From: Acidobacteriota bacterium
GTDB lineage: Bacteria; Acidobacteriota; Blastocatellia; Pyrinomonadales; Pyrinomonadaceae
Reading direction: 5' to 3'
Assembly (NCBI GenBank): GCA_019639155.1
Contig: JAHBSJ010000007.1
Coordinates: forward strand, 173,429 to 237,428
DNA length: 64,000 nt
Shown: piece by piece, positions 3,909 to 23,405 of the stretch
How positions within the stretch are numbered: the first letter of the stretch is position 1
How the letters are laid out: every line of letters starts with the position of its first letter
Made by a program: the position numbers and the translations under genes
Notes under the pieces: generated by a model
What the model was told of the DNA's origin: nothing
What the model saw: only the letters and a program-made list of their open reading frames with translations
The model's database searches: none

Positions 3909-5216
3909 CTAATTTGCGCCGGCGGCCTCATCGGCGGTCTCGGCGATACCGCTGGAAATACGCTCGATGTCGCCGCCCAGCGAACGCAGCTTTCGGACTA
4001 TGCGCTCGTAGCCGCGGTCGATGTGGTAAACGCGGTCGATCAGCGTCTCGCCTTCGGCACACAATGCAGCCAGTACAAGCGATGCCGAAGCTCGAAGGTC
4101 CGACGCCAGAATGGGTGCGCCCATCAGTTTACGCGGGCCGATCACTTCTGCGGTGTTGCCCGCGACATGTATCTCGGCTCCCATGCGGACGAGCTCCGAA
4201 GCGTGCATAAAACGATTCTCAAATATCGTTTCCGTGATGTGCGACGTGCCCTCGGCCTGCGTCATCAACGCCATATACTGTGCCTGCATGTCGGTCGGGA
4301 AAAGCGGATGCGGCTCGGTAATGACGTCGCTCGCACGCAGCCCGGCCGGCGAGCGGCGGACGAGCAGCGTGCTTTGGTTCAGCTCCTCGATCTCGACGCC
4401 GGCTTCGCGGAGTTTGTCGATGACCGCGGTCAAATGCTCGGGGCGGCAGCTTTTTATCTCAAGTTCGCCGTCGGTGATAGCGGCGGCGACGATGAATGTG
4501 CCTGTTTCGATGCGGTCGGGAATGATCGTATGTTCGGCACCGCCGAGTCCCTCGACGCCGTCGATCTCCATCACGGGCGTGCCGGCACCGCGGATGCGTG
4601 CGCCCATTTTGTTCAGCAATTCTGCGAGGTCCTCGATCTCGGGCTCCATCGCAGCGTTGCGGATAACGGTGCGGCCTTCGGCTAAGACAGCGGCCATCAT
4701 TACGTTCTCGGTTCCCGTAACGGTGACCTTTTCAAACTCAAGTTCGGCTCCTTTCAGGCGTCCCTTCGGAGCGCGTGCTACGACGTCGCCGCTTTCGAGC
4801 GAAACGACCGCACTGAGCTGTTCAAAAGCCCGCAGATGCAGGTCGATCGGGCGCGTTCCGATGGCGCAGCCGCCGGGCAAACTCACTTTCGCCTGTCCAA
4901 AACGCGACAACAGCGGACCGAGAGCCAACACGCTCGCACGCATCGTTTTCACGAGATGATACGGAGCTTCGAAGATATCGACGTTGCGTGCGGTGACCTT
5001 GTGCGTTCGGAGTTCCGGCGTCAGCACGGTCGCGCCGAGGTCCTCGAGCAGACGCCGCTGCGTGATCAGGTCCTTTACATACGGGACGTTGTGCAGAGTG
5101 ACGGTCTCCGGCGTCAGCAGCGTCGCGGCAAGGCACGGCAGGGCGGAATTTTTCGCTCCGCCGATCTCGATCTTTCCCCTTAGCGGCTTGCCGCCGCGCA
5201 CCAAAAACTTGTCCAT
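3909..5216 (-). CDS. murA: UDP-N-acetylglucosamine 1-carboxyvinyltransferase
   Basis: 435 aa with full-length resemblance to MurA, including the active-site loop LPGGCAIGTRPIDLH. Confidence 0.95.
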   Translation of the reverse strand: MDKFLVRGGKPLRGKIEIGGAKNSALPCLAATLLTPETVTLHNVPYVKDLITQRRLLEDLGATVLTPELRTHKVTARNVDIFEAPYHLVKTMRASVLALGPLLSRFGQAKVSLPGGCAIGTRPIDLHLRAFEQLSAVVSLESGDVVARAPKGRLKGAELEFEKVTVTGTENVMMAAVLAEGRTVIRNAAMEPEIEDLAELLNKMGARIRGAGTPVMEIDGVEGLGGAEHTIIPDRIETGTFIVAAAITDGELEIKSCRPEHLTAVIDKLREAGVEIEELNQSTLLVRRSPAGLRASDVITEPHPLFPTDMQAQYMALMTQAEGTSHITETIFENRFMHASELVRMGAEIHVAGNTAEVIGPRKLMGAPILASDLRASASLVLAALCAEGETLIDRVYHIDRGYERIVRKLRSLGGDIERISSGIAETADEAAGAN

Positions 5217-5381: not shown

Positions 5382-5978
5382 TTGACGGCTTTGAGTACAA
5401 ATGAATTCGAAAGTTCACGCTTTTCGCGTGCGGACGCCGACCTCGTCGCTCGCTGCCGCCGCGGCGATCAGTCGGCGTGGGACGAGATCGTGGACAAATA
5501 TCAGCGTCTGATCTTCGCCGTTCCGATGCGTTCCGGGCTTGCCGAGGAACAGGCGGCGGACGTGTTTCAGGAGGTGTTTCTGACGTTGTTCAACAAGATC
5601 GACGAGATCGAACAGCCCGAACTGCTGCGCTCTTGGATCGTCACAACGGCAAAATTCAAAACTTGGGGAATCATCCGCGGACAGAAAGGAAAATATTCGC
5701 CGGCCGGTGAGGAAGAGATGGAAAATGAGATGGCAAACCTCAAGGACGCCGCCCCGCTTCAGGACGAGATGCTGATCGAACTCGAACAGCAGCATCTGAT
5801 CCGCCGTGCGCTTGCCGAACTCGAGGAAAAGTGCCGAAAGATCCTCTCTTTGCTTTACCTTCGAGAACCTGCGGCCAGTTACGCTGAGGTCGGCGAGGCG
5901 ATAGGCGTTGGCGAAACCAGCATCAGCCCGCTGCGTTCGAGGTGCCTGAAGAAATTGGAAAAGATATTGCGAATGTAA
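5382..5978 (+). CDS. ECF-type RNA polymerase sigma-70 family factor
   Basis: 198 aa. Region 2 reads DEIVDKYQRLIFAVPMR...QEVFLTLF and region 4 reads ILSLLYLREPAASYAEVGEAIGVGETSISPLRSRCLKKL. The start codon is TTG at 5382, and the exact start is uncertain (an alternative TTG lies at 5391). Confidence 0.9.
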   Translation: MTALSTNEFESSRFSRADADLVARCRRGDQSAWDEIVDKYQRLIFAVPMRSGLAEEQAADVFQEVFLTLFNKIDEIEQPELLRSWIVTTAKFKTWGIIRGQKGKYSPAGEEEMENEMANLKDAAPLQDEMLIELEQQHLIRRALAELEEKCRKILSLLYLREPAASYAEVGEAIGVGETSISPLRSRCLKKLEKILRM

Positions 5979-6048
5979 TGTGTCTTTTTGCCGCGTTTGC
6001 CGGCACTGTGTCAGCGAGAAGGGCAAATGGCCCGAAGGATAAGTTGGA

Positions 6049-6540
6049 ATGAGCAGCCTGTTGGAAAAAAGATTGGATAAGATCGTCAGCCTGATGCGGA
6101 GCGACCGTTCGGCGGATGCGCCGGCAGACGCAATCAAATACGCAAAAATGCTGATGAGGTCGCGAATTCCGGCAGCCGAGCCCGGCATCGTGGAGCGCAT
6201 CGTCGCCGTGCTGAAGATGAACCTTGAGCCGGGCAAACCGGCATTCGGCGAGCGTTCCGCATCAGCGGCATCGGCACGGCAGATGCTCTTCGACGCAGGC
6301 AGCTATGCTGTGGACATCCGTATCACAAAGACCGGACGCAGTTATGAGCTCCGCGGACAGATCGTCGGCGGCGAAGCGACGTCCGCTGAAATTAGGCTCT
6401 CCAAAGGAAACAAGACACTCCAGACAAGAACTGACGAGTTCGGAGGCTTCAGATTTGAAAAGCTTTCGGCCGGCGAATGCGATATCGCGATCGTCCTGGA
6501 CGGCAAGGAACTCGTCATCCCGCAAATAGTGGTCGAATAG
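6049..6540 (+). CDS. Hypothetical soluble protein with a helical N-terminus and a beta-sandwich-like C-terminus; candidate ECF partner
   Basis: 163 aa with an ATG preceded by AAGGA. There is no TM segment and no zf-HC2 Cys/His motif. The C-terminal part (YELRGQIVGG...FGGFRFEKLSAGECDIAIVL) looks like a carboxypeptidase-regulatory-like fold. It sits between the ECF sigma gene and the CHAT gene. Confidence 0.5.
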   Translation: MSSLLEKRLDKIVSLMRSDRSADAPADAIKYAKMLMRSRIPAAEPGIVERIVAVLKMNLEPGKPAFGERSASAASARQMLFDAGSYAVDIRITKTGRSYELRGQIVGGEATSAEIRLSKGNKTLQTRTDEFGGFRFEKLSAGECDIAIVLDGKELVIPQIVVE

Positions 6541-6624
6541 CTCGGCTGCCCCGCAATAACCCTCGATATTCCGGGCGGTGTCCGCTTAAAACATCGCCCC
6601 TTCAATAGCGTATTATCATTCCTG

Positions 6625-9408
6625 ATGCGCAGATCGCAGTTGGCTGAAAGTTTGGCGGCGTCTCCTACGGCGAAGGACCGCACCCTGCTGCTCAGGCAAA
6701 ACAGCCGGATCGCCGACGCACGCTTGGCCGACGGGATCCGCAGGCTTTGTTACAAAGCGTGGGCAAGCGATACGAAAAAGGTAAGGCCGCTCGCCCGTGC
6801 GGCCGCATCACTTGCCGGATTCAATGACGATCAAAGCATCTCTGCGACGGCGAGATGGACCGCGGGCATCGCGGCGATAACCGCCGGCAGATTCGAAAAG
6901 GCGGACGAGGACCTAAAACAAGCCGCGGAGCTTTTTTCCGCGAATTCGTCTGCAGCCGAATCCGCCGCGGTGAATGTCGCACGCCTCATCTGCCTGGCGA
7001 TGCTGGGCCGCTACGATGAGGCGATCGAGATCGGAAAGAGGACCAACAAGGTATTTGGAGCACTGGGTGACCACCTTGCGAAAGGCAAGGTAGAGATGAA
7101 TCTCAGCAATATCTTTGCGCGTCGAGGCTCGTTCGACGAGGCACTTCGTTACGGCAAGGCCGCAAGGCTGAGTTTCCGGAAGGCGAATGAGCCGCGATGG
7201 ACAGTAATGGCCGAGAACAGCCTTGCCAACACCCTTGCGGACACCGGCCGCTACGGCGAGGCCGAGCGGATGTATGAGTCAGCTTTGGCAAATGCCGTTG
7301 CCGATAAGATGGACGTTACCGCGGCCGAGATCGAAGCGAGCATAGGGCATCTTGCGGTCATACGCAGCCGTTTTGCCCGCGCATTGAATTTTCTGGAGCG
7401 TTCCCGCGGCCGCTATGACGAACTGAAAATGCCGCATCAGTCGGCCATCGCGGACCTTGAGATCGCCGATATTTACGCGGAACTGGGCCTGGGCGGCCGG
7501 GCCGTCGAGCTTTACCGACGATCCGCCGCCGCGTTTCGCAGGTTCAGGCTGCGCGCCGAAGAGGCTCGTGCCAGGCTGGCGTTGGGACGTGCGCTTTCGG
7601 CTTTGCAGGCACGAGGAGCTGAAACGGAACTCGCAGCCGCTGCCGGGCTTTTCGCAAAAGAAAAGAATAATGTCGGTGTTGCCGCCGCGTATGCAGCGTT
7701 GGCCGAAGACGCCATTCGCCGCGGACTGCCTGAGCATGCGATCGAACTTTTAGGGAAATTTCAGCGGGCCGAAAGTGCCGACCCGAGGACAATAGCTGCC
7801 GCGGCACTCACCGAGGGCCGTGCACTGCTGCGGCTCGGCCGTCGCAAAGGTGCGGTCAAGGCTGTTGAAACGGCGTTGTCCGCCGCTCGCGAGCATTCGC
7901 TGGATGACCTCATTCGCGCGTCCTATGAGGCTCTCGGCGAAATTTACGAGCCTGTCGAAGTTGAAAAGGCCATCTCGTATCGGTATTCGGCAATTGAAGC
8001 CGCCGAACGTGCGGGAGCGTCGGTCGCCGGGGCTGATCTGGGCCTTGCTGTCGCCGCAAAGAACGCCGAGTGTTACGATTCGCTGGCAAAGCTGCTGCTG
8101 AAGCAGGGCAATTATGAAGAGGCGTTCAGTGTTGTCGAAAGAGGCCGCAGCAGGGATCTGTTGAACGCGATGAATACGGCCGCCGCGGGCCGACGCAATT
8201 CGAAATTGAACGACGCCGCGAACGAAATGCGGCACGATCTGAATCTGATCTATTCACGGCTGGCGTCCGAGGCGGGCGAAGAGGCGGAACGGCTTTCCGC
8301 CGCCGCGAAGCGCAAGGAGAAGGCACTTGCGGACCTTGAGCGGCGATCGAGCAGCCTGAATATTCAGGAAAAACGTGTTCGCCGCGTGCATGCCGGCATC
8401 TCGGCAAATGACACCGTCAACGCAATTTCCGGCGGGCGGACACTGATCGAGTATGTCGTTTTGGACGGCGTGATCTCTGCGTTTTCGGTTTCACACGGCA
8501 AATTGCGATATTTTGGGGGACTTGCGTCGGCAGTTGAGGCGGCGGCGTTGATGGACGAACTGCGGTTCGGTTTCGGTGCGATGCGCTATGGCGGCGAGTT
8601 TGCGGCGCGGTTCGCCGAGAGTATTCGGCAGCGTTCCGACGGCTGTTTGGCAAAACTGTATGATCTGCTGATACGGCCGCTCGAGGGCGTGCTGAGCAAA
8701 GAACTGCTGATCGTGCCTGCGGGCGTGCTGCATTATGTGCCGTTCAACGCGTTGTTCGACGGCTCATCATATCTCATCGAAAAACACACCGTGACCCTTG
8801 CGCCGAGTGCGTCGGTCCGGCATCGGCTAAAGGGCAGACGGCCCGCCGCGAACGGCGAGATGCTGATCATGGGTTATGCGGACGAGAAGATCCCGCACGT
8901 GGACGCCGAGATCGCGGCAATTGCGGCAACGGTCAAAGGTGCCTTGAGATTCAGCGGAAAGCGGGCCGCCTATGACGCATTCATGAGCAACGCCGCGGGC
9001 CGCGAATACATACATCTGGCGTGTCACGCCGATTTTCGCAGCGACGATCCGATCTATTCGGGCCTGCATCTGGCGGATGGCTGGGTGACGGTCCGCGACC
9101 TCGTATCGGAAAAGATATCGGCACGGCTCGTTGTCCTGAGCGCGTGCGAAACGGGCATGAGCGATGTGCGTGCCGGCGATGAGGTGGTCGGGCTGACACG
9201 AGGGTTTTTGGCGGCCGGTGCCTGCGGGCTCGCGGTCAGCCTGTGGGCCGTGAACGACCGCTCGACCGCCGAGCTGATGAAATATCTCTACGCGGAATTG
9301 CAACGCGGTTCCGCAGCGGCCGAATCATTAAGGCAGGCGCAGATAAAAATGATCGGACGCGGGCATTCGCCATATCATTGGGGAGCCTTTGTCTATTTGG
9401 GAAAATAA
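6625..9408 (+). CDS. TPR-repeat plus CHAT-domain (caspase-like, clan CD) protease
   Basis: 927 aa. The N-terminal ~480 aa are Ala/Leu-rich TPR-like repeats, followed by a coiled-coil segment. The C-terminal CHAT domain has a His-Cys dyad in canonical context: YIHLACHADF (His801, nt 9025-9027) and LVVLSACETG (Cys841, nt 9145-9147). Confidence 0.85.
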   Translation: MRRSQLAESLAASPTAKDRTLLLRQNSRIADARLADGIRRLCYKAWASDTKKVRPLARAAASLAGFNDDQSISATARWTAGIAAITAGRFEKADEDLKQAAELFSANSSAAESAAVNVARLICLAMLGRYDEAIEIGKRTNKVFGALGDHLAKGKVEMNLSNIFARRGSFDEALRYGKAARLSFRKANEPRWTVMAENSLANTLADTGRYGEAERMYESALANAVADKMDVTAAEIEASIGHLAVIRSRFARALNFLERSRGRYDELKMPHQSAIADLEIADIYAELGLGGRAVELYRRSAAAFRRFRLRAEEARARLALGRALSALQARGAETELAAAAGLFAKEKNNVGVAAAYAALAEDAIRRGLPEHAIELLGKFQRAESADPRTIAAAALTEGRALLRLGRRKGAVKAVETALSAAREHSLDDLIRASYEALGEIYEPVEVEKAISYRYSAIEAAERAGASVAGADLGLAVAAKNAECYDSLAKLLLKQGNYEEAFSVVERGRSRDLLNAMNTAAAGRRNSKLNDAANEMRHDLNLIYSRLASEAGEEAERLSAAAKRKEKALADLERRSSSLNIQEKRVRRVHAGISANDTVNAISGGRTLIEYVVLDGVISAFSVSHGKLRYFGGLASAVEAAALMDELRFGFGAMRYGGEFAARFAESIRQRSDGCLAKLYDLLIRPLEGVLSKELLIVPAGVLHYVPFNALFDGSSYLIEKHTVTLAPSASVRHRLKGRRPAANGEMLIMGYADEKIPHVDAEIAAIAATVKGALRFSGKRAAYDAFMSNAAGREYIHLACHADFRSDDPIYSGLHLADGWVTVRDLVSEKISARLVVLSACETGMSDVRAGDEVVGLTRGFLAAGACGLAVSLWAVNDRSTAELMKYLYAELQRGSAAAESLRQAQIKMIGRGHSPYHWGAFVYLGK

Positions 9409-9501
9409 TTTTTACGCACAGTGTCTTTTCTTTGCAGTAAGATGCACTGTATGGGAAACGCCCGTCCGCAGACACGCCATTCAGGCGGCCCGGCGGGCGA
9501 A

Positions 9502-10905
9502 ATGAGGGGAGCAGTGACGCCCAATAAATTACTAATATTTGCGATCGCACTTTTTACTTTTGCCATGTCGCCTTTGCCGGCGGCCGCCGATAAGAACGCG
9601 GAAGGCGATTGTTCATGCGTTCCGGGACAGGTCATCGTGCAGTTGGCAAATTCCGCTGACCTGAACGCCGTCGCAGCACAGTACGGACTTAGTTTGACGC
9701 CGATCTCACAGGTCGCGAACCCGTCGATCTTCCTGATGAACATCACATCGGGCCAAGCGCCGCAGCAGGTCGTCGCGGCGATGACCACGCCGGCCGATCC
9801 TCGGATAGTTTTTGCCGAAGTAAACCGAAAACTCTCAAATGCCGAACGCGAAGGCCTTTCGTGGACACAGGGCCGTTCATGGGCCATTGGCCGTTCGTGG
9901 GCCATCGGGGGCAGCTCAAAAGGCTACGGGAAACAGTATTTTCCGTTGCGGATCCGCCTGAACGAGGCATTTGCGGCGGCCGGCACACGAGGGCTGCGTA
10001 TTGATAACGAGGCCCCGGTCGTCGTCGCCGTCATGGATACAGGCATCGACCTGTCGCATCCGGCGTTCGCGGGCCGGCTGGTGCCGCAATCGCAGATGTG
10101 GGATTTCGTCGATAACGACAATGATCCGAGCGAGGTCGGAGAGCTTCGACAGGACCCGTCCTACGGACACGGAACGCATGTCGCAGGCATCATTGCTCTA
10201 ACGGTTCCCGATGCCAAGATAATGCCGATCCGCATTCTGGGGCCCGACGGTTCGGGCGAGCTGTGGCGTATCACCGCGGGCCTCATCTGGGCTGCCAACA
10301 ACGGTGCGGACGTCGTAAACCTGAGCATCGGCTATCCGGAAAGGGTGCGGCTGCTGAAGGATCTGCTGGACTGCGTTGACGTAGGAACGACGCCGACCGG
10401 TACGACCTTTCCCGAGATCGGGACCAAAAGGCTCGCCGTTTCTGTGGCTTCGGGCAACGGCGGAAATTCAGCGATGATCTATCCTGCTGCAGAACAGGCT
10501 GACGGCATGCTGTCGGTGGGGGCAAGCACCCGATATGATTCACTCGCACTTTTCTCTTCGTACAACCGTTCCTGGGTCGATGTGACGGCACCCGGCGAGG
10601 ACATCGTCAGCGCATTGCCGGGCGGGCGATACGGCGTTTGGTCGGGGACGTCGATGGCGGCTCCGATCGTCGCAGGCATTACAGCACTGGTAAAAGCACG
10701 GTATCCGACCACATTTGCCACGCCGCATGACCTCCTTGCCCATGTTAAAGAGACCGCCGTTGACAAGCGATTCAATCTGCAGCCTTTCGGCGAGGTCCGC
10801 CTGAAACGCGTCGATGCGCTGTGTGCGGTCACGAACAATCAGAACTGTCCTATACCTCAAAATGCAGCCCTATTCTCCGGCATCGAGGTGTTTTCTGTGA
10901 GATAG
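9502..10905 (+). CDS. Secreted S8-family serine peptidase (subtilase) with an I9-like propeptide
   Basis: The catalytic triad motifs are VAVMDTGID, HGTHVAG and GTSMAAP. I chose the start at ATG 9502 because it gives the signal peptide MRGAVTPNKLLIFAIALFTFAMSPLPAAA. The track ORF starts at 9421. Confidence 0.9.
   Translation: MRGAVTPNKLLIFAIALFTFAMSPLPAAADKNAEGDCSCVPGQVIVQLANSADLNAVAAQYGLSLTPISQVANPSIFLMNITSGQAPQQVVAAMTTPADPRIVFAEVNRKLSNAEREGLSWTQGRSWAIGRSWAIGGSSKGYGKQYFPLRIRLNEAFAAAGTRGLRIDNEAPVVVAVMDTGIDLSHPAFAGRLVPQSQMWDFVDNDNDPSEVGELRQDPSYGHGTHVAGIIALTVPDAKIMPIRILGPDGSGELWRITAGLIWAANNGADVVNLSIGYPERVRLLKDLLDCVDVGTTPTGTTFPEIGTKRLAVSVASGNGGNSAMIYPAAEQADGMLSVGASTRYDSLALFSSYNRSWVDVTAPGEDIVSALPGGRYGVWSGTSMAAPIVAGITALVKARYPTTFATPHDLLAHVKETAVDKRFNLQPFGEVRLKRVDALCAVTNNQNCPIPQNAALFSGIEVFSVR
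9853..9906 (+). repeat. Three tandem 18-bp in-frame units encoding G(L/R)SW(T/A)(Q/I) inside the subtilase gene
   Basis: The units are ggcctttcgtggacacag / ggccgttcatgggccatt / ggccgttcgtgggccatc. The last two are 16/18 identical. The translation is GLSWTQ GRSWAI GRSWAI. Confidence 0.85.
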
Positions 10906-10938
10906 TCGTCGATCTCATCAGTTTACCCCGATCCGAAA

Positions 10939-10975
10939 GGAGGACGCAGGATATACCTGCGTCTTCCTTTTTTTT
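10939..10975 (+). terminator. Rho-independent terminator after the subtilase gene
   Basis: The stem aaggaggacgcagg / cctgcgtcttcctt has one G-U pair and a loop atata. It is followed by a T8 run. Confidence 0.75.
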
Positions 10976-11049
10976 CGCAAGGTGTCTTTTTTGTCTGTCC
11001 AGCCGCACTGTAGCTATGACGACATTCGGCAAACCGAATTAAGAATCAA

Positions 11050-13236
11050 ATGGCAGGTACAAAAATGAATACGAATACAGTAAAGACAATGGCCTTTTAC
11101 CTTAAGGCATCGGCGGTCGCACTCGGGATCGCTCTATGGGCGTTCATGCCCGTGTTTATCGAAGCGATCAAAGCTCAGAGCGGTGTGCCGATCGTCGTAC
11201 GCACGGCGATCCTCGCTTCGCCGACCGGCAGCATCAATCCGTACGGCGACGCCGAATGGCAGCTATATTCCAACGGCGACCGTGAGATCGAGGTCGAGGT
11301 TCAAGATACGGCCTTTGGTGCGGGAACCGCTCTCAATGCGGTGGTTGACGGTAATGCGATCGGCCAGATCTTCATCGAAAGCGACGGCCGCGGCCGGCTG
11401 AAACTGAAGACCAGCCTCGGCCAGAGCGTGCCGAATACCAACAACGGATCGACGGTCGCCGTCATGAACGGCACGACGGTCGTTGTCGCGGGTGTTTTCG
11501 GCGGCGGCGGTTCGACGCCATCGCCCACGGCATCGCCTTCGACCTCGCCGTCGACGTCTCCGACGGCCAGCCCGTCAACGTCTCCGACCGCAAGTCCTTC
11601 GCCTTCAACTTCGCCTACGGGAACGCCTTCGCCGTCGCCTTCGGCATCGCCGAACAATGATATCGTGGCGGGCTTGAGCGGGCCCGTGCTCAACGGCGTC
11701 GTACCTTTCGGCTTCGCGACGTATGAGATCCACAGCAGCCGTCGAGAACTCGAGGTCCGGCTCCGACAGATAAATCTTCCGATCGGCACGACGGTGACGT
11801 TTGACGTCAACGGAACGCAGGCGGGTGCATTTCAGATCGAAAGCGGCGGCGAAGCGAGGCTGAGGCTTCGGAGCGACCAAGGGGCTAACGTGCCTGTTGT
11901 CACGCCGGGAATGTCGGCTGCCGTCAAGCACAACGGTTCCGTAATATTGACCGGCACCTTCGTCGCCGGCGGAGCAACGCCATCACCGTCGCCCTCGCCT
12001 TCAGGCACTCCTACGGGAACGCCGAGCCCGAGCCCGAGCGGCACGCCTTCAATGGGAAGGTCGTTTGAGGCTCATCTCAACGGCAACAATGTGGTTCCCG
12101 CGGTATTTACGCCCGCGACCGGCGAACTGAAAGTTTCGCTCAACGCAGACGAAACCGTAGCGACAGTGTTCGGTGAATTTCACAACCTGATGAGCGATCA
12201 GACCGGAGCCCGCATCGAGACGGCCATCGGATCGGTCACGACCATCCTCGACCTCGGTGTTGCCGGCGGACGCAACGGCAATTTTGCTTCGAGGACGTTT
12301 CCCGTATCGGCGATACAGGTCCAGCAGCTTCGTGCGGGCCTGTGGTCGGCGGTAATCACCAGCGTAAACAATCCGAACGGCGAGATCAGAGGCTCGTTCC
12401 GTGCCCGCGGCGGCGAAAGCGACCTGGACGGCGACGGCAACGATGACCTCGCGGTCTTTCGTCCGGCGACCGGTGAATGGTTCGCATCGAACAGCAGCGG
12501 CAATACAGGGTTTGCGTTCGGCAGCAGCGGCGATCAGGTGGTTTCTGCTGATTACGACGGCGACGGCGTAACGGACGCTGCGGTCTATTCCAACTCAAAC
12601 GGCTACGGCCTCTGGCAAATCCGACGCAGCAGCGACGGCGGCATCACCTACGGCAATTTCGGCCTCGCGGACGACACGCCGCTCAGGGGCGACTTTGACG
12701 GCGACGGCAGGAACGACCTCGCGGTGTTCCGTCCTTCGAACGGTATCTGGTACATACTGCGGAGCGGCGGTGCAGGCGTCCGCCACATCTCGTGGGGCAT
12801 GGCCGGCGACATTCCGATGCCCGCTGACTATGACGGCGACGGCATGACCGACGCGGCGGTGTTCCGTCCTTCGAACAGCACGTTCTACTTCATCCGCAGC
12901 AGCGACCGCCAGATCCGTATCACCGGCTGGGGCATCGCGGGTGACGTGCCGGTGCTCGGCGATTTCGACGGCGACGGCAAGAACGACATAACCGTCTATC
13001 GCCCGTCGAACGGAACGTGGTACACGCTTCGCAGTTCGGACAACACTATCGCGATCACAGGCTGGGGAACGGCAGGCGATATACCGGTCGCGGGCCGCTA
13101 CGACGCGGACGGCAGGACCGATATCGCGGTGTTCCGCCCGTCGGACGGCAACTGGTACATTCTCCGAAGTTCGGACAATACCATTCAGATAGCTAACTTT
13201 GGTATGGCGGGCGACGTTCCGCTGATAGCGAGGTAG
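11050..13236 (+). CDS. Large secreted or membrane-anchored modular protein: two ~100-aa N-terminal repeats, Pro/Ser/Thr linkers, a CHRD-like domain and about six FG-GAP/VCBS-like repeats
   Basis: 728 aa with a hydrophobic N-terminal anchor. The PST linkers lie at nt 11512-11652 and 11974-12051. The CHRD-like segment reads FEAHLNGNNVVPAVFTPATGE...NPNGEIRGSF. The repeated unit is D(Y/F)DGDG.(T/N)D.AV(F/Y)RPSNG.WY.LRS....I..WG.AGD.P. Confidence 0.8.
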   Translation: MAGTKMNTNTVKTMAFYLKASAVALGIALWAFMPVFIEAIKAQSGVPIVVRTAILASPTGSINPYGDAEWQLYSNGDREIEVEVQDTAFGAGTALNAVVDGNAIGQIFIESDGRGRLKLKTSLGQSVPNTNNGSTVAVMNGTTVVVAGVFGGGGSTPSPTASPSTSPSTSPTASPSTSPTASPSPSTSPTGTPSPSPSASPNNDIVAGLSGPVLNGVVPFGFATYEIHSSRRELEVRLRQINLPIGTTVTFDVNGTQAGAFQIESGGEARLRLRSDQGANVPVVTPGMSAAVKHNGSVILTGTFVAGGATPSPSPSPSGTPTGTPSPSPSGTPSMGRSFEAHLNGNNVVPAVFTPATGELKVSLNADETVATVFGEFHNLMSDQTGARIETAIGSVTTILDLGVAGGRNGNFASRTFPVSAIQVQQLRAGLWSAVITSVNNPNGEIRGSFRARGGESDLDGDGNDDLAVFRPATGEWFASNSSGNTGFAFGSSGDQVVSADYDGDGVTDAAVYSNSNGYGLWQIRRSSDGGITYGNFGLADDTPLRGDFDGDGRNDLAVFRPSNGIWYILRSGGAGVRHISWGMAGDIPMPADYDGDGMTDAAVFRPSNSTFYFIRSSDRQIRITGWGIAGDVPVLGDFDGDGKNDITVYRPSNGTWYTLRSSDNTIAITGWGTAGDIPVAGRYDADGRTDIAVFRPSDGNWYILRSSDNTIQIANFGMAGDVPLIAR

Positions 13237-15218: not shown

Positions 15219-17081
15219 TTACATGTCGCGGCCGAAATACTGACGATAAAGCCTTTGCTGCTGTTCGCTCGGCTGTTCCACAGGAGCAAAGCTGAACTCT
15301 TTGCGCGTATTGGCGCCGAGCGTAAATTCTATCTCTCTTAGCCGGTCGTGCCGGAAAATGGTCAGCCGCACCTTGTCGCCGGGCTTGCGTTCGCCGATGT
15401 ATTGGGTCAAAAAGCTCTGCGATACGCGATAGCCGTCAACGGCGACGATCTGATCTCCGGCGTTCAGGCCTTGATCATAGGCAGGCGTCCCGGCCGGTAC
15501 ACTTCGTATGCTCAATCGCCCGGCGTCCTCGGCCATATCCGCGCCGATATACGCACGTTTCGTTGACGGCGTCATAGTGACCGACCAAAGCCCGATGCCC
15601 GTCGTTATTGCCGAATAGTCGATCTCGTCGCGGCCGCGGACGTATTTTGCAAAGAATTCGTCGAGGCTTTTGCCCGCAAATTTTTCGCACGCCGCCTGAA
15701 AATCGGCGGATGTGAAATTGCGGTCCTTTTTCGCGAATTCGTCGTTCAAAAAACGAAAAACGTCGTCGAGGGAATGTTTGCCGTCGGACGCGGTGCGTAT
15801 CGAGATGTCGAGCATCATACTTACGATCTCGCCCTTGTCGTAATACGAGACCTGATTGTTTATCGCATTCTCGTCCTGCCGATAAAACTTGATCCACGCG
15901 TCAAAGCTCGCTTCTTCGAGGCTCGTCTCGAAACGGCCGGGGCGATTCTCAAGCTGCGTTATAAGCCCGGCGATCGCATCGAGCATATCATCGCCGGATA
16001 TGAGGCCGGCACGCATCAGAATGACGCCTTCGTAATAGGCGGTAGCACCTTCGGCGATCCAGAGCAGACGCGTATAATTCTCGCTCTCATAATCGAACGG
16101 CCCCAGGACGTCCGGTCTGACCCGTTTCACGTTCCAAACGTGAAAGAACTCGTGTGCGACAAGCCGCAGGAAATTCGTGTAACGCGTCTCGTTGCGAAAC
16201 GCGAATCGGTTGACCTGCAGGGCGGTCGAGTTCATGTGCTCCAGGCCGCCGCCGCCGCGTGTGTTCACGATGAATAGGTAATCTTCGTACGGCAGCTCGC
16301 CGAAGATCTTGTAGCATTCCTCGATGATCTTCGCTGTGTCCGCCGCGAGTTTGTCCAGATCATAGTTGCCCTCGCCCGTTACGACATAGCGGTGCATTTT
16401 GCCGCGGACCTCGAAACGCTTTTCCTTAAAATCGCTCACCTCAAAGGGCGAGTCGTAAAGAACGTCGAAATTCTCCGCCCGGAAAGTGTTCTCACTGCCT
16501 GCAACCGCGGGCAATCCGGTCGCGACGCGCCAATTGCCGTAAGGGTTTACCTTGACCGTAGCGGGCACGTTCAGGTGATCTTTGATAAAGAAAAGCAGTG
16601 CGGTGTTATTCCAGAACGCGTGCTCGTAATTAAGTTCGTTCGTGCGGACGGTGAGCTCGTTCGAATAGACCTTGTAGCTGGCGGTGAATTGTTTCACGCC
16701 CTTCGTATCGACCTGCCACGTGTTCTTGTTCGCCTTTGTCCACGGCAGCTCGCGTCCCGCGGCGTCGCGTACGGTGAACTGCTGGACGTGGCGTGCATAT
16801 TCGCGGACCAGATAGCTGCCGGGCGTCCAGACGGGCATTTTCAGCTCCGTCTTGTCGGGAGCGTTCTCCCAGCGGACCTGCATCTCGACCTCGAGCAGGT
16901 GCGTCCATGGCCTCGGCATCGACACGGTGAACGCGATATCGGGCGGTGCGGGCTTTGCCGCAGCGGGCTGTTTGCGCGTGTTCGGGGCCGGTTTTCGCTG
17001 AGCCTGCGTGTCCTGATACATAACGAAGAGGCTCACGAAAATGAGCCCGATGAATACTTTAATACTAATTTTTTCAAACAT
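15219..17081 (-). CDS. M61-family glycyl aminopeptidase with a C-terminal PDZ domain
   Basis: 620 aa with a signal peptide and the zinc motif HEFFHVWNVKR. The PDZ-like region reads LSIRSVPAGTPAYDQGLNAGDQIVAVDG. Confidence 0.9.
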   Translation of the reverse strand: MFEKISIKVFIGLIFVSLFVMYQDTQAQRKPAPNTRKQPAAAKPAPPDIAFTVSMPRPWTHLLEVEMQVRWENAPDKTELKMPVWTPGSYLVREYARHVQQFTVRDAAGRELPWTKANKNTWQVDTKGVKQFTASYKVYSNELTVRTNELNYEHAFWNNTALLFFIKDHLNVPATVKVNPYGNWRVATGLPAVAGSENTFRAENFDVLYDSPFEVSDFKEKRFEVRGKMHRYVVTGEGNYDLDKLAADTAKIIEECYKIFGELPYEDYLFIVNTRGGGGLEHMNSTALQVNRFAFRNETRYTNFLRLVAHEFFHVWNVKRVRPDVLGPFDYESENYTRLLWIAEGATAYYEGVILMRAGLISGDDMLDAIAGLITQLENRPGRFETSLEEASFDAWIKFYRQDENAINNQVSYYDKGEIVSMMLDISIRTASDGKHSLDDVFRFLNDEFAKKDRNFTSADFQAACEKFAGKSLDEFFAKYVRGRDEIDYSAITTGIGLWSVTMTPSTKRAYIGADMAEDAGRLSIRSVPAGTPAYDQGLNAGDQIVAVDGYRVSQSFLTQYIGERKPGDKVRLTIFRHDRLREIEFTLGANTRKEFSFAPVEQPSEQQQRLYRQYFGRDM

Positions 17082-17177: not shown

Positions 17178-18431
17178 ATGCAGACTGCAGGACAAGGCGA
17201 CAACGGCACACAGCCGGCAAACGAGCGATTCTTCACGCCGCCGCTGCTCATCATTTTTCTCACCATCTTCATTGACCTTGTCGGTTTCGGCATCGTCATT
17301 CCGCTGCTGACGTTTTACGGCGAAGAATTTAACGCAACACCGCTGGATATAGGGCTGCTGGTATCGTCGTATTCGCTGATGCAGTTCGGCTTTTCGCCTA
17401 TTTGGGGCGCGCTGTCGGACAGGTTCGGACGGCGGCCGATCTTGTTTCTCACGATCTTAGGAACGAGCGTCGGTTATCTCGTACTTGGCCTGGCGACAAG
17501 CCTGTGGATGGTTTATGCGGGGCGTCTGGTCTCGGGGATCGCAGGCGGAAACCTTGCCACGGCGCAGGCTTACATCGCGGATGTTACTTCGCGTGAGAAC
17601 CGCGCCCGCGGCATGGGCCTATTCGGCATGGCGTTCGGGCTCGGGTTCATCATCGGCCCGGCTCTCGCGGGCGTGCTGAGCAAATTCGGGATGCACGTGC
17701 CTTTCCTGTTTGCTGCGGGATTGAGTTTTGCGAACGCTGCGTTGCTGTATTTCATTCTTCCGGAGAGCCTGAGTCCCGACCGCGTCGGGGCAAAACGCGA
17801 GGGCCGTCTGCGGCAGATGTGGTCTTCGATCAGAAACCCGATACTCGCTAAGATCTCGCTCGATTTCTTTCTGGTCGTGACGGCATTCTCGATGATGACG
17901 ACGGCATTCGCGTATTACACGATGGTCAAATTCGGCTACGACGCGGAAAAGACGGGCTATCTCTTGGGCTTTGTCGGCCTGGTCGCAGCGGTGATGCAGG
18001 GCGGCGTATTCGGCGTTTTGGCAAAGCGTTTCGGCGAGGTGCCGCTGATCGCGGCGGGCTGCGTGATATTGACGGCGAGCCTCGTTGCCGTGCCGTTCGT
18101 GAGCTCGGCGAGCGGCGGTTTGCCGATGCTGCTGATCGGCATCGCCGCGTTCGCTATCGGCAATTCCATCTCATCGCCCGCATTGACCAGCCTTGCCTCA
18201 AAATCCGCCAACGAAGCGGAACAGGGCCAGGCGCTCGGCATCATGCAGTCTTTTGCCAGCCTCGCACGCGTGATCGGGCCGCTGCTGTGCGGACTGCTGC
18301 TGAACAATCAATTCAACCAAGTGGACGACGCGACGATCTTGCGGACATTCTGGACTGCCGCCGGAATAATGATCGCGGCTTTTGTCGTAAGTCTTTTTCT
18401 CAGGCGGGTTCCAAAGGAAAAATTTAGCTGA
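17178..18431 (+). CDS. MFS transporter (TetA/TCR-like, 12 TM)
   Basis: 417 aa and highly hydrophobic. MFS motif A is GALSDRFGRRPIL. Confidence 0.9.
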   Translation: MQTAGQGDNGTQPANERFFTPPLLIIFLTIFIDLVGFGIVIPLLTFYGEEFNATPLDIGLLVSSYSLMQFGFSPIWGALSDRFGRRPILFLTILGTSVGYLVLGLATSLWMVYAGRLVSGIAGGNLATAQAYIADVTSRENRARGMGLFGMAFGLGFIIGPALAGVLSKFGMHVPFLFAAGLSFANAALLYFILPESLSPDRVGAKREGRLRQMWSSIRNPILAKISLDFFLVVTAFSMMTTAFAYYTMVKFGYDAEKTGYLLGFVGLVAAVMQGGVFGVLAKRFGEVPLIAAGCVILTASLVAVPFVSSASGGLPMLLIGIAAFAIGNSISSPALTSLASKSANEAEQGQALGIMQSFASLARVIGPLLCGLLLNNQFNQVDDATILRTFWTAAGIMIAAFVVSLFLRRVPKEKFS

Positions 18432-21390
18432 CGGCAAGACGGCGGCCTTTCTTTTCAGCGTTCGGGAAGGCGAGGGTGAAGGTCGTGCCGTGGCCCTCGC
18501 GGCTGGTGACCTCGATCGTGCCGGCGTGTTCCTGAATGATGCCGTACGAAACAGCGAGGCCGAGTCCCGTGCCGTTGCCGACGCCTTTTGTCGTAAAGAA
18601 CGGATCAAAGACCTTTGATAGATTCTCTTCCGGAATGCCCTCGCCCGTGTCCGAAACCTCGATAACGACACCGTCGCCTTCGGCTCTTGTTCGCAGTGTG
18701 ATGGTCCCGCCGGCGAACATCGCGTCGCGAGCGTTCAGGATCAGATTGGTGAAAACCTGCTGCAGCTTGCCGCCGTTGCCGTAGATCGGCGGCGGCGAAT
18801 CTGCGTATTCCTTGACGACCTCGACGCTGCCTTTTCGCATTTGCGGTTCGAGAAGTTGGAGCGTGTCGTTGAGCAGTTTGTTCACGTCGATCTCCGTGAA
18901 TTCTTCCGATGTGCCGGTGCGTGAGAAATTGAGCAGATTGCCGACGATGTTGGTCGCACGCTCGGTCTGACGGTGCATCTTTTCGAGCAGGGCGTGTTTC
19001 GGATCGGTCTCAGGGATCATGCCCAGCAGCATCTGCGTGTAGCTGGAAACGCCCGTGAGCGGCGTATTCACCTCGTGCGCGACGCCCGCCGCCAGCAGGC
19101 CGATGCTCGATAGTTTTTCGCTTTGCTGCAGCGTTTCTTCCAGCTTGACGCGGGAAGATACATTCTCGAGCACGATGATCGCTCCGGTCTGCTGGCTCGA
19201 AACGGAACGAAGCGGCGCGACGGCGACATTGAGTATCAGCGAGGCACCGTTGCGGTCGAATGTGTGCAGTTTGTAAGCGTTGCGAATTTCGGTCAGATGC
19301 CAGCGTGATTTGCCTAGGATAGCCTCGATGTTCTGCGACAGTCCAGGCTCGAACACCTCTTCGACCAAACGGCCGACCGCCTCGTCGCGGCTGTGCCCCA
19401 TCATTTCCTCAAATGTCGAATTGGACCGCGTGATGCGTCCCGTCTCGTCCACGGCGAGCAGGCCGACGTTTACCGACTCGACTATGGATTCGTTGAATTC
19501 CTTCAGCAGAGCGAGCTCTTCGGCGTGCTGCCGCTGTTGGCCGTACAGACGGCTGTTCTCAATAGCGACGGCGATATAGCCGGAAATTGCCTTGATGATC
19601 TCAAGATCCTCGGACGAGAGCAGCGAACCGTCGCTCGCGCGTCCGAGGCCGATGACCGCGACCATTTTGCCGCCGGCGACGCAGGGAACGAAATAGTGCA
19701 GTTCGTGGCGGACGGGCAACGCCGAATTTCCGTTTACGGACGGCTTCGGTGACGATTCCTGAATATCCAGTTCGTCCACGCGGACGATGCCGCGTGCCGC
19801 GGAACGCTGACGGATCATCGTTCGAAAATCCGCAGGTATGCGGTATTCTTCGCTCAATCCGTGAGCCTTTGCGATGCGGTAATGAGCTACTGCCGTCTCG
19901 TCCTCGAGGAATATGGCGACCTTTTCCACGTCCAAAACCTGACGCAGACGTTCAGCCAAACCGTCAAGCAGCGGATCCAATGCGGTCGTAGCCGACAGCG
20001 TTTTGCCGAAATCAAGAAGTCCCTGCCGCAGGTCGTAGCGTTCGCCGTAGAAGAACCGGTCGGCACGTTCCGACAGGAATTTCTTCAGCGGTTCGCTGAG
20101 CATGATGATCGCGCCCATCGCGACGATGGCGATTATGGCACGCAGGGCTATCTCGACGGTCGAAAGGTCTTTGCCGACCGCGAGGAATACCAGGCCGAGG
20201 GCGACGCCGCCGACCATCATTGCGATGAACAGCGTCGTCAGAGCATAAACCAACGCACGCCGGACGACGACGTCAACGTCCATCAGTCGGTAACGTACGA
20301 CCGAATGTCCGAAGCTAAGCGGGATCAGCGCCAGCGGCAGCGTGGTTATCGCGGTGCTGAAATTGTCGTCCGGTATCTGAATCGCAAAACGCTCGACAAG
20401 CTGCATCAGCACGACGGGAACGATGGCGGCGATGGTGCCCCACATCGTCCATTTCAGGCGTTGACGCACCAAAGGCTGCTTGCTGGTGAAAACACGCCAG
20501 ACAAGCACGGCCGCACCCGCGGAAACGCCAACCACGAAATGCAGAAAGTTGAAGCGAAACAGCAGGGCGAAGAAATTGAACCGGTCGCTCAAACGAGCGA
20601 TGGCCTCGGTGACCGAAGATTCGGGAAAGAACTGCGGCACCAGCGATACGAAGGTCAAAACGACAGCGAAAATTGCCGCCGGGACGTAGAGAATGTAAGT
20701 TTTCCAGGGCTTTTCGGTCAGAACGTCGCTGCGGACCGGATACCTGATGCAGAAATGCAGGAAAAGCGGCACGAAGAACGCAAGTGCGAAGTTATCCAGC
20801 AGATCGACCGCCAGGTCGAAATCCTTTGCGATGCCGATCGGCCTGTAAACGTGAAACACGAAAGCCGCCAGGCAGACCATCGCGAAATGCAGAACGAATG
20901 GGGCCCTGCTGCCTTGCTTGAAAAGCACGAACAGCCCGACACCGAGCCAGACGAATCCGACGATCGACAGGAATACTATCGAGGGCGTCCAGCGTTTGAC
21001 GGGGTCGATGTTCCTTAGGTCGGCGAAATAGAAATTGTCTGCAAAAGAATACGAAGGCCGCTGATAATAGTAGGTCAGGCTGCCGCCCACACCGGCTATC
21101 TCGAGATACATCTGCACGTCGGCGGGCGAAAGCACCTCGTCGGTCGTGTCGTTCTCAAGTGCGATACCGAGGAGTTTGTCGCCGACCGCGATGCCGGCAC
21201 GTGATCCCGCGAGGTCCGGAATGACCTTTTCCGCATAAATGCCGTCGTCGCGGTGAACCCAGAGAACCCCGTCCGTCGGAGGCATCGACTGAAAGGCCCG
21301 CTGTGTCATGTTCAGAGCCCCGGCGGCGACCAGCAAAACGGTCGCAAGCAGCCAGATCAGACTCCAACTTGTCAGCACTTTGTCCTTCAT
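18424..21390 (-). CDS. Multidomain sensor histidine kinase (TM, PDZ-like, polytopic membrane region, GAF, PAS, HisKA, HATPase_c)
   Basis: 988 aa. The H-box is AHEVNTPL, the N-box LILNARDA, and the G-boxes DTGEGI and GTGLGLA. The N-terminal PDZ-like segment is [15 protein letters not shown]. No response regulator gene is adjacent. Confidence 0.9.
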
Positions 21391-23304: not shown

Positions 23305-23405
23305 AAGTGCCCGCAATACAAGCAACTTTCGTATTCTGTTCCCAAAAATCAAGTGTGTCAAGCCCTTGGGGCAACGTGAACGTCTGCGGTTGGGATGCGA
23401 TTAAC

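Follow-up and report, generated by a model that had tools for sequence, protein, structure and literature searches.

A conserved locus for an ECF sigma factor, a soluble relative of zinc-binding anti-sigma factors and a TPR-CHAT protease in Acidobacteriota, and its possible role in the control of secreted proteins

We analyzed a stretch of 64,000 nucleotides (nt) from an Acidobacteriota bacterium of the family Pyrinomonadaceae (assembly GCA_019639155.1, contig JAHBSJ010000007.1, positions 173,429 to 237,428; hereafter the window), in which a compact gene cluster encodes a sigma factor of the extracytoplasmic function (ECF) type, a protein of 163 amino acids (aa), a protease that combines tetratricopeptide repeats (TPR) with a CHAT domain, and a subtilase of the Peptidase_S8 family (S8). 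An earlier note on this sequence had described four co-directional, closely spaced genes that diverge from murA, and we could confirm all four open reading frames (ORFs) on the plus strand with gaps of 70, 84, and 93 nt as well as murA (3909–5216, EPSP_synthase fold at E 4e-109) on the minus strand. Profile searches recovered the domains that had been expected, namely Sigma70_r2 and r4, TPR, CHAT (PF12770), and Peptidase_S8. The features of the cluster are compiled in Table 1.

Table 1. Genes, promoter-like motifs and other features of the cluster, in window coordinates.
Feature	Position	Strand	Remarks
ECF-type sigma factor, 198 aa	5382..5978	+	TTG start; Sigma70_r2 and r4; TIGR02937 at 1e-24
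Promoter-like motif P1, TGTCTT-N17-CACTGT	5981..6009	+	39 nt 5′ of the 163-aa gene
163-aa protein, predicted cytoplasmic; zinc-less short form of a soluble family of zinc-binding anti-sigma (ZAS) type	6049..6540	+	
PGKPAFGERSAS, codons 61–73 of the 163-aa gene	6229..6267	+	Candidate protease recognition or cleavage site
TPR-CHAT protease, 927 aa, predicted cytoplasmic	6625..9408	+	CHAT PF12770 at 2e-57; TPR families
Promoter-like motif P2, TGTCTT-N17-CACTGT	9422..9450	+	51 nt 5′ of the start codon of S8
Secreted subtilase (Peptidase_S8), 467 aa	9502..10905	+	PF00082 at 5e-45; N-terminal signal-like segment
Intrinsic terminator after S8	10935..10975	+	16-bp stem, 5-nt loop, T-run
Promoter-like motif P3, TGTCTT-N17-CACTGT	10983..11011	+	38 nt 5′ of the FG-GAP/CHRD gene
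FG-GAP/VCBS and CHRD exported protein, 728 aa	11050..13236	+	Fifth conserved gene of the cluster

The subtilase gene is followed by a strong terminator, which had been taken as the end of a four-gene unit. The terminator is real as judged by direct folding (stem 10935–10971 with a T-run to 10975, ΔG −33.2 kcal/mol, z = −6.15, with 0 of 200 shuffled sequences folding as well), by which it was recognized, a simple consensus terminator scan not having called it. However, the functional unit continues beyond it: another gene, encoding an FG-GAP/CHRD protein and preceded by a promoter-like motif of its own, is conserved downstream of the terminator, and the conserved unit thus consists of five genes and runs past both the terminator and the end coordinate that the earlier note had assigned to the cluster.

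Conservation analysis showed that the gene order is kept in relatives far beyond chance. With a profile of the 163-aa family we retrieved 80 loci, each from another species-level genome (short-form loci, as opposed to the long-form class described below); all synteny counts use only those loci with enough contig to judge. The majority of them, 78 of 80, belong to Pyrinomonadaceae, Blastocatellia, or other metagenome-assembled genomes of Acidobacteriota, and the remaining two are labelled Actinomycetota and show the same synteny at 41–44% identity. The sigma factor gene lies directly upstream of the 163-aa gene and in the same direction in 80/80 loci, a full-length TPR-CHAT gene follows downstream in 56 of 58, S8 comes after CHAT in 52 of 53, and the FG-GAP/CHRD gene after S8 in 41 of 43. 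The exceptions are few: the CHAT gene is split over three frames in locus L037; locus L054 (3267–9401) has kept the sigma factor and the short form, lacks CHAT and S8, and continues with opposite-strand genes; in locus L001 the FG-GAP gene is inverted and lies upstream of the sigma factor gene; and no FG-GAP gene was found in locus L013. The flanks of the related loci are housekeeping genes, and murA adjoins the cluster in only about one third of them, which places it outside the unit.

The 163-aa protein has no transmembrane-like segment, no HxxxCxxC, and no zf-HC2 motif, in agreement with the earlier observation that it is not a classical membrane anti-sigma factor, and its gene cannot be extended upstream in frame, no earlier start codon than that at 6049 following the preceding stop. 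A match to CarboxypepD_reg at E 0.0018 falls below the Pfam threshold. The family comprises at least 212 proteins, and a profile search of 1.84 billion representatives revealed two size classes of ∼160 aa and ∼200 aa. Nine of ten inspected ∼200-aa forms carry H-x3-C-x2-C within an N-terminal extension of ∼40 residues; Pfam zf-HC2 is above the gathering threshold for the long forms P0147 and P0164, and some long forms are named “anti-sigma factor RsiW” or “zf-HC2 domain-containing protein” in the source databases. In a 50-sequence alignment of long forms, H7, H32, C36, and C39 are nearly invariant, with a spacing that we take to be the ChrR-type pattern. The window protein aligns colinearly with the long forms beginning halfway through helix 3; helices 1–2 are missing from it, as are all four zinc ligands. 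One protein of ∼200 aa, P0254, has kept the N-terminal extension but not the HxxxCxxC motif, so that repeated loss of the zinc site is possible, through substitution in some cases and truncation in others.

In searches against the PDB, the family profile (alignment A4) matched RsiW (5wuq_C) at 3.6e-6 over profile positions 17–71, which reaches into the part that the window protein retains. This chain comes from the same 5wuq complex as SigW (5wuq_A), the best PDB match of the window sigma factor at 3.9e-10. The profile also matched the N-terminal domain of DdvA (8rlz_A at 2.3e-4, 8rot_B at 0.016), mainly in the helices that the window protein has lost, and ChrR at E 0.08. An AlphaFold2 model of a long form shows a confident three-helix bundle at aa 10–54 (predicted local distance difference test, pLDDT, 92–95), a fourth helix at 63–76, a low-confidence linker at 80–107, and a confident beta-sandwich at 112–204, and Foldseek returned ChrR-SigE at rank 2 for this model. 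The AlphaFold2 model of the window protein consists of a confident C-terminal beta-sandwich (aa 76–163) and a low-confidence region (aa 1–75); Foldseek against the PDB gave only generic Ig-like or beta-sandwich matches for it, none with E ≤ 1e-3. Judged by these sequence relationships, the 163-aa protein is a relative of the zinc-binding ZAS anti-sigma factors, being a short form stripped of the zinc module. The suggestion that it acts as a soluble anti-sigma factor gains support from its homology and colinearity with ∼200-aa zf-HC2/ZAS proteins encoded in the same gene arrangement, and the anti-sigma activity of the window protein itself is uncertain.

The long forms belong to a paralogous class of loci, of which we collected 85 further examples in total, counting contexts of long forms on long contigs together with 80 metagenomic loci. 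HxxxCxxC is present in 83 of the 85, the sigma factor gene is directly upstream and co-directional in 57/57, and TPR-CHAT is directly downstream of the anti-sigma gene in 51/51 with a median gap of 11 nt. In 19 of 21 loci, as determined by tblastn and hmmscan, S8 follows CHAT; these subtilases are 38–45% identical to the window S8, match Peptidase_S8 at about 1e-40, and sometimes carry a fervidolysin-type prodomain and Calx-beta domains. The sigma factors of the two classes are 41–64% identical. The unit of sigma factor, anti-sigma-type protein, TPR-CHAT, and S8 is thus conserved in both classes, and FG-GAP/CHRD downstream of S8 is a conserved member only in the short-form class.

Within the 163-aa family, 21 positions are invariant at an overall identity of ∼42%. 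Conservation peaks at PGKPAFGERSAS with 3.63 bits per site, compared to 2.93 for aa 1–75 and 2.46 for the beta-sandwich. Here, F66, G67, E68, R69, and S70 are invariant in alignment A1; the linker motif of the family is FG(E/V)RS, and its Gly and Arg are invariant across the short and the long class. The segment lies in a predicted flexible linker with pLDDT < 50 in both AlphaFold2 models. Stretches that are predicted to be disordered and yet highly conserved typically fold upon a partner or are recognized by one. We regard the conserved stretch as a candidate site for recognition or cleavage by a protease, at which Arg69 could be the P1 residue.

The same conservation pattern bears on the possibility that the short form no longer regulates the sigma factor and is either a relic or has adopted a new role, so that the sigma factor would be controlled only by its own transcription. 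The loss of helices 1–2 and of the four zinc ligands would be in line with this, as would the low confidence with which the N-terminus is modelled. However, what remains of the N-terminus is constrained more strongly than the folded domain, the protein having 21 invariant positions, and the gene is retained beside the sigma factor gene in all 80 genomes, where a relic would decay. We consider such an explanation quite improbable.

The TPR-CHAT protein matches several TPR families over aa ∼73–510, in line with the ∼480 aa of TPR-like repeats reported before, and its CHAT domain spans aa 674–926. Both residues of the previously described dyad, His801 (nt 9025–9027) and Cys841 (nt 9145–9147), are intact and are invariant in 58 of 58 orthologues, which speaks for a protease-competent CHAT domain in homologues. 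The protein carries no transmembrane-like or signal segment. We rejected its assignment as a Csx29 orthologue (NF041237 at 55.6 bits versus a cut-off of 300; PDB chains of Csx29 at E ∼1e-4 only over aa 793–888, which surround the active site) as well as that of the locus to a known anti-phage system, PADLOC giving no defence-system assignment.

In a plasmid collection, 140 records contain CHAT homologues, which match only in the C-terminal half and at 24–36% identity. We inspected three of these contexts, a CATRA conflict system in Streptomyces, a type VI secretion/two-partner secretion region in Caballeronia, and a Hymenobacter plasmid, and found no ECF sigma factor in any of the three. The Streptomyces plasmid (NZ_CP108308.1, 418207–431529; L089) encodes a distant CHAT homologue of ∼1,610 aa beside “CATRA conflict system” proteins. 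Since the inspected plasmid homologues occur without a sigma factor, the sigma link appears to be specific to this CHAT subfamily.

The sigma factor, which NCBIfam places only in the generic sigma70-ECF family, has no transmembrane-like or signal segment. It contains three cysteines, C25, C151, and C188, the latter two inside Sigma70_r4 (aa 143–192). All three are invariant in 41 sigma factors linked to short forms and in 58–59 of 59 linked to long forms, at identities down to 41%, and may give the sigma factor a redox or metal site of its own.

A dyad search across the loci identified the sequence TGTCTT-N17-CACTGT, of which the 64-kb window contains exactly three exact copies versus 0 expected. 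Across the loci it is found upstream of the 163-aa gene (73/81), S8 (48/58), and the FG-GAP gene (43/53), and it is not enriched upstream of the sigma factor or CHAT genes. The spacer measures 17 nt in 151 of 151 instances, and the motif ends 18–70 nt upstream of the start codons. In L001 it has moved together with the inverted FG-GAP gene onto the minus strand. In the diverged class with an FGVRS linker the motif reads TGTATTT-N17-(C/G)ACTGT; it is located upstream of the anti-sigma gene in 57/70 loci, and upstream of S8 in 11/22. Thus, the −10-like half stays constant, and the −35-like half changes from TGTCTT to TGTATT and co-varies with the sigma clade; the TGTATT clade also differs in the recognition helix of region 4. 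The motif therefore behaves as expected of a promoter of the cognate sigma factor, which presumably reads it.

The earlier note had raised the question of a matching ECF promoter ahead of 5382 or 9502. The motif precedes 9502, and in addition 6049 and 11050; none precedes 5382. Its absence before the sigma factor gene indicates that this gene is not positively autoregulated from the motif, and its presence before the 163-aa gene predicts feedback on the genes for the anti-sigma-like protein and CHAT. Among the FGVRS-type loci (L092–L171, e.g., L101, L103, L119, L142, and L157), the reverse complement of the motif is located upstream of the sigma factor gene in 15 of 48, and five loci have weak FG-GAP-like matches upstream of the sigma factor gene, which lie on the minus strand in L119, L142, and L157. 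This suggests an extra, divergently transcribed regulon gene in FGVRS-type modules. In L069 there is an additional exact match to TGTCTT-N17-CACTGT, the fourth, which lies downstream of the FG-GAP gene (17376–17404) and implies an extra regulon member in that genome.

The location of the motif could also be accommodated by an ordinary pair of sigma and anti-sigma factor with non-proteolytic release, in which TPR-CHAT is a co-regulated effector with another substrate, by analogy with CHAT-containing conflict or cell-death systems. Release might then occur when a ligand or partner binds the beta-sandwich, or when the three sigma cysteines, whose invariance fits this explanation, undergo redox chemistry. 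It also fits that the presumed regulon includes the genes for the 163-aa protein and CHAT, that CHAT proteins are found in many unrelated contexts with no sigma factor (CATRA, two-partner secretion, and others), and that L054 lacks CHAT. On the other hand, CHAT adjoins the anti-sigma gene in 107 of 109 loci of two diverged classes, and in the long-form class the gap is often only ∼1–20 nt, which suggests stoichiometric co-expression with the anti-sigma factor; moreover, no toxin or immunity gene is conserved nearby and PADLOC finds no defence system. This alternative is unlikely in our view.

The two remaining genes encode proteins with features of export. The Asp/His/Ser triad of S8 is invariant in 54/54 orthologues, 87% of which have an N-terminal hydrophobic signal-like segment. 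We prefer ATG 9502 as its start, because an ORF beginning at GTG 9421 would overlap the conserved promoter-like motif. The FG-GAP/CHRD protein matches FG-GAP at 1e-18, FG-GAP_3 at 1e-16, and CHRD at 6e-12, and 89% of its orthologues have a signal-like N-terminus. In the S8 gene, an in-frame 18-nt tandem duplication (9871–9905, 1.9 copies, 94% match) encodes GRSWAI twice in the pre-catalytic region. Long Pro/Ser/Thr-rich low-complexity linkers (window 11500–12100) separate the N-terminal region, CHRD, and the C-terminal FG-GAP/VCBS part of the FG-GAP/CHRD protein, with a 24-nt imperfect repeat at 11600–11651.

Since S8 and the FG-GAP/CHRD protein are signal-like at their N-termini and the core proteins have no transmembrane segment, we read the two as outputs. 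For S8, the earlier note had offered two roles, an output or a second step in a protease cascade, and the former fits both the signal peptide and the sigma-type promoter motif that S8 has of its own. A two-step cascade, in which S8 processes the 163-aa protein or CHAT, could draw on the fact that S8 is linked to the module in 52/53 loci of the one class and 19/21 of the other. However, S8 is predicted to be exported, some long-form homologues carrying a fervidolysin-type prodomain, whereas the sigma factor, the 163-aa protein, and CHAT, all without transmembrane or signal segment, are predicted to be cytoplasmic; furthermore, S8 has a promoter motif of its own, as target genes typically do. 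We therefore regard the cascade as extremely improbable.

The reading that we favor, though we would place it slightly short of an even call, is that a cytoplasmic core of ECF sigma factor, soluble anti-sigma-type protein, and TPR-CHAT protease controls the exported S8 and, in this subfamily, the FG-GAP/CHRD protein. It draws on the gene content, synteny, catalytic residues, ZAS homology, predicted compartments, and the motif that co-varies with the sigma clade. According to this model, the sigma factor gene would be expressed from a promoter of another type, and its product would be held by the conserved N-terminal region of the 163-aa protein, which as a remnant of ZAS helices 3–4 might fold on binding. 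A cytoplasmic cue would act on the ∼480-aa TPR array and activate the CHAT domain, which would then cleave the 163-aa protein within the conserved, flexible linker, the likeliest position being behind the invariant Arg (F-G-E-R|S). The freed sigma factor would transcribe from the three TGTCTT-N17-CACTGT promoters, i.e., the 163-aa and CHAT genes as feedback, S8, and FG-GAP/CHRD.

The gene set itself is already known, as it has been catalogued for the actinobacterial group ECF54; the statement in the earlier note that CHAT proteins are neighbours of some ECF groups was correct and refers to this group. In the classification of Casas-Pastor et al. (10.1101/2019.12.11.873521), the supplement gives ECF54 as 100% Actinobacteria, and the group description reports a carboxypeptidase-regulatory-like protein “always in position +1”, TPR repeats, a subtilase at +2 or −1, and CHAT at +3 or −2. 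It further lists “2C in sigma4” for some subgroups and a predicted promoter GTATCAG-Xn-CTCC, and describes the group as being without an anti-sigma factor, with regulation by the neighbours already hypothesized. A 2022 review counts ECF54 among the ECFs regulated by proteolysis. Our locus resembles ECF54 in having the same four protein families side by side, with a beta-sandwich protein at +1 in 80/80 loci, and shares with some of its subgroups two cysteines in region 4 of the sigma factor, C151 and C188. In contrast to the actinobacterial group, 78 of 80 loci are acidobacterial, CHAT is at +2 and S8 at +3, and the ECF54 promoter GTATCAG-Xn-CTCC has 0 matches in the 64-kb window. Moreover, whereas ECF54 has been published as having no anti-sigma factor, the +1 protein here is homologous to ZAS anti-sigma factors. 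Judged by gene content and cysteines, the locus is an ECF54-type neighbourhood in a new phylum. Judging from the supplement of 10.1101/2019.12.11.873521, the theme of a +1 beta-sandwich protein with TPR may span at least three phyla. What is new here is the relationship of the +1 protein to ZAS factors, the candidate cleavage motif, the map of a regulon with three promoters that takes in a fifth gene, and the large paralogous family that has retained the zinc domain.

The proposal made for ECF54 is essentially that CHAT, possibly with the 163-aa protein as adaptor, degrades the sigma factor itself to keep the system off, so that there would be no true anti-sigma factor. The invariant CHAT dyad agrees with this idea, and so does the loss of the ZAS three-helix bundle from the window protein. 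However, the +1 family is homologous to ZAS anti-sigma factors and 83 of 85 long-form modules keep the zinc motif; the retention of a zinc domain in so many modules makes the lack of an anti-sigma factor unlikely for the family as a whole. In addition, the most conserved exposed linear motif is found in the 163-aa protein and not in an obvious linker of the sigma factor. We rate degradation of the sigma factor as rather improbable.

Release of the sigma factor by CHAT, as we favor it here, has a proposed yet unproven precedent in the DdvS/DdvA pair of Myxococcus xanthus, where DdvA fuses a ZAS domain to TPR-CHAT in a transmembrane protein with a periplasmic TPR-CHAT part and depends on RseP (PMC11506125). 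Both systems combine an ECF sigma factor, a ZAS-type domain, and TPR-CHAT with a His-Cys dyad. Unlike in DdvA, the anti-sigma-like protein and TPR-CHAT are here separate, soluble, and predicted to be cytoplasmic, the 163-aa protein of the window has no zinc site, and the outputs are secreted proteins instead of an island of CBASS (cyclic oligonucleotide-based antiphage signalling system) and CRISPR (clustered regularly interspaced short palindromic repeats) genes.

A second precedent is the type III-E craspase, in which Csx29 cleaves Csx30 in complex with an ECF sigma factor (PMC10028731). As in this system (PMC10028731, PMC9825189), a cytoplasmic TPR-CHAT protein is encoded together with an ECF sigma factor and a small sigma-associated protein, and the logic of protease-triggered sigma release that we propose is the same. 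Unlike in craspase, Csx31 is missing and the candidate substrate is a ZAS-family protein instead of Csx30. The 64-kb window contains neither a gene of Cas7-11 size (the largest other ORF has 988 aa) nor a tandem-repeat or CRISPR array, as already expected from the absence of a gRAMP/Cas gene in the earlier note, and the trigger therefore cannot be a guide RNA.

In known ZAS factors, release is brought about by a redox change, by singlet oxygen, or through regulated intramembrane proteolysis. The long forms share with ChrR, RsrA, and the cytoplasmic domain of RsiW the HxxxCxxC motif with an upstream His in a three-helix bundle followed by a fourth helix. As in ChrR with its cupin, they have a C-terminal beta-rich domain and their gene is directly downstream of that for the ECF sigma factor. 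In contrast to known ZAS factors, the family has the conserved FG(E/V)RS linker and a TPR-CHAT gene downstream, and the window protein is without helices 1–2 and the zinc ligands.

Several points weigh against the model of CHAT-driven sigma release. In classical anti-sigma factors of class I, the three-helix zinc module makes much of the contact to sigma region 4; having lost helices 1–2 and the zinc ligands, the short form may bind the sigma factor weakly or differently, and the 75 N-terminal residues of the 163-aa protein, which would provide the contact, are modelled with low confidence. An AAC-type −35 element, as many ECF promoters have it, is absent from the motif, which is assigned to this sigma factor by inference. 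Likewise, sigma binding by the short form, the CHAT cleavage, its site, and the cue are deduced. Placing Arg at P1 is a guess by analogy with the specificity of metacaspases and separases, and craspases cut after Met or Leu. Locus L054 shows that CHAT is not strictly required for the pair of sigma factor and short form to persist. Finally, in DdvA, the nearest case studied so far, mutating the catalytic dyad had no phenotypic effect, nor was autoproteolysis observed (PMC11506125); CHAT is thus not known to drive the cleavage of anti-sigma factors outside CRISPR.

With these points in mind, we would go further only tentatively, and the following generalization seems to us possible but on the whole doubtful: Blastocatellia might employ a widespread, CRISPR-independent “caspase-to-sigma” switch, in which a cue other than a nucleic acid leads to a cut at FG[E/V]R|S of a soluble, ZAS-derived anti-sigma factor and turns on secreted proteases. 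Such a switch would correspond, in an unfused and perhaps ancestral form, to DdvA and to the Csx29/Csx30/RpoE output arm of craspase, and its 163-aa protein would represent the missing anti-sigma factor of ECF54.

Given the craspase, DdvA, and ECF54 precedents, such a mechanism would not greatly surprise a specialist. On TPR-CHAT signalling outside CRISPR, the ECF54 literature contributes a gene-neighbourhood association only. The locus and its ∼165 relatives offer a soluble system in which CHAT signalling independent of CRISPR can be studied in an unusually clean and testable form, with the 163-aa candidate substrate, the F-G-E-R-S motif, H801/C841, and three candidate target promoters as elements accessible to experiments. 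If the model is true, caspase-like cleavage of anti-sigma factors would be a general bacterial signalling device and not a CRISPR accessory, and the “+1 carboxypeptidase-regulatory-like protein” of ECF54-type loci would have to be reclassified as an anti-sigma factor. Should the mechanism fail, a well-defined, lineage-specific regulon for secreted proteins would still be at hand in an under-studied soil phylum.

Apart from murA, four minus-strand genes in the surroundings of the cluster, which are not conserved with it in relatives, encode a sigma-54 activator with two GAF domains (449–2560), an M61 glycyl aminopeptidase with a PDZ domain (15219–17081), a GAF-PAS histidine kinase (18424–21390), and a TonB-dependent receptor with a CarboxypepD_reg domain (21595–23361).

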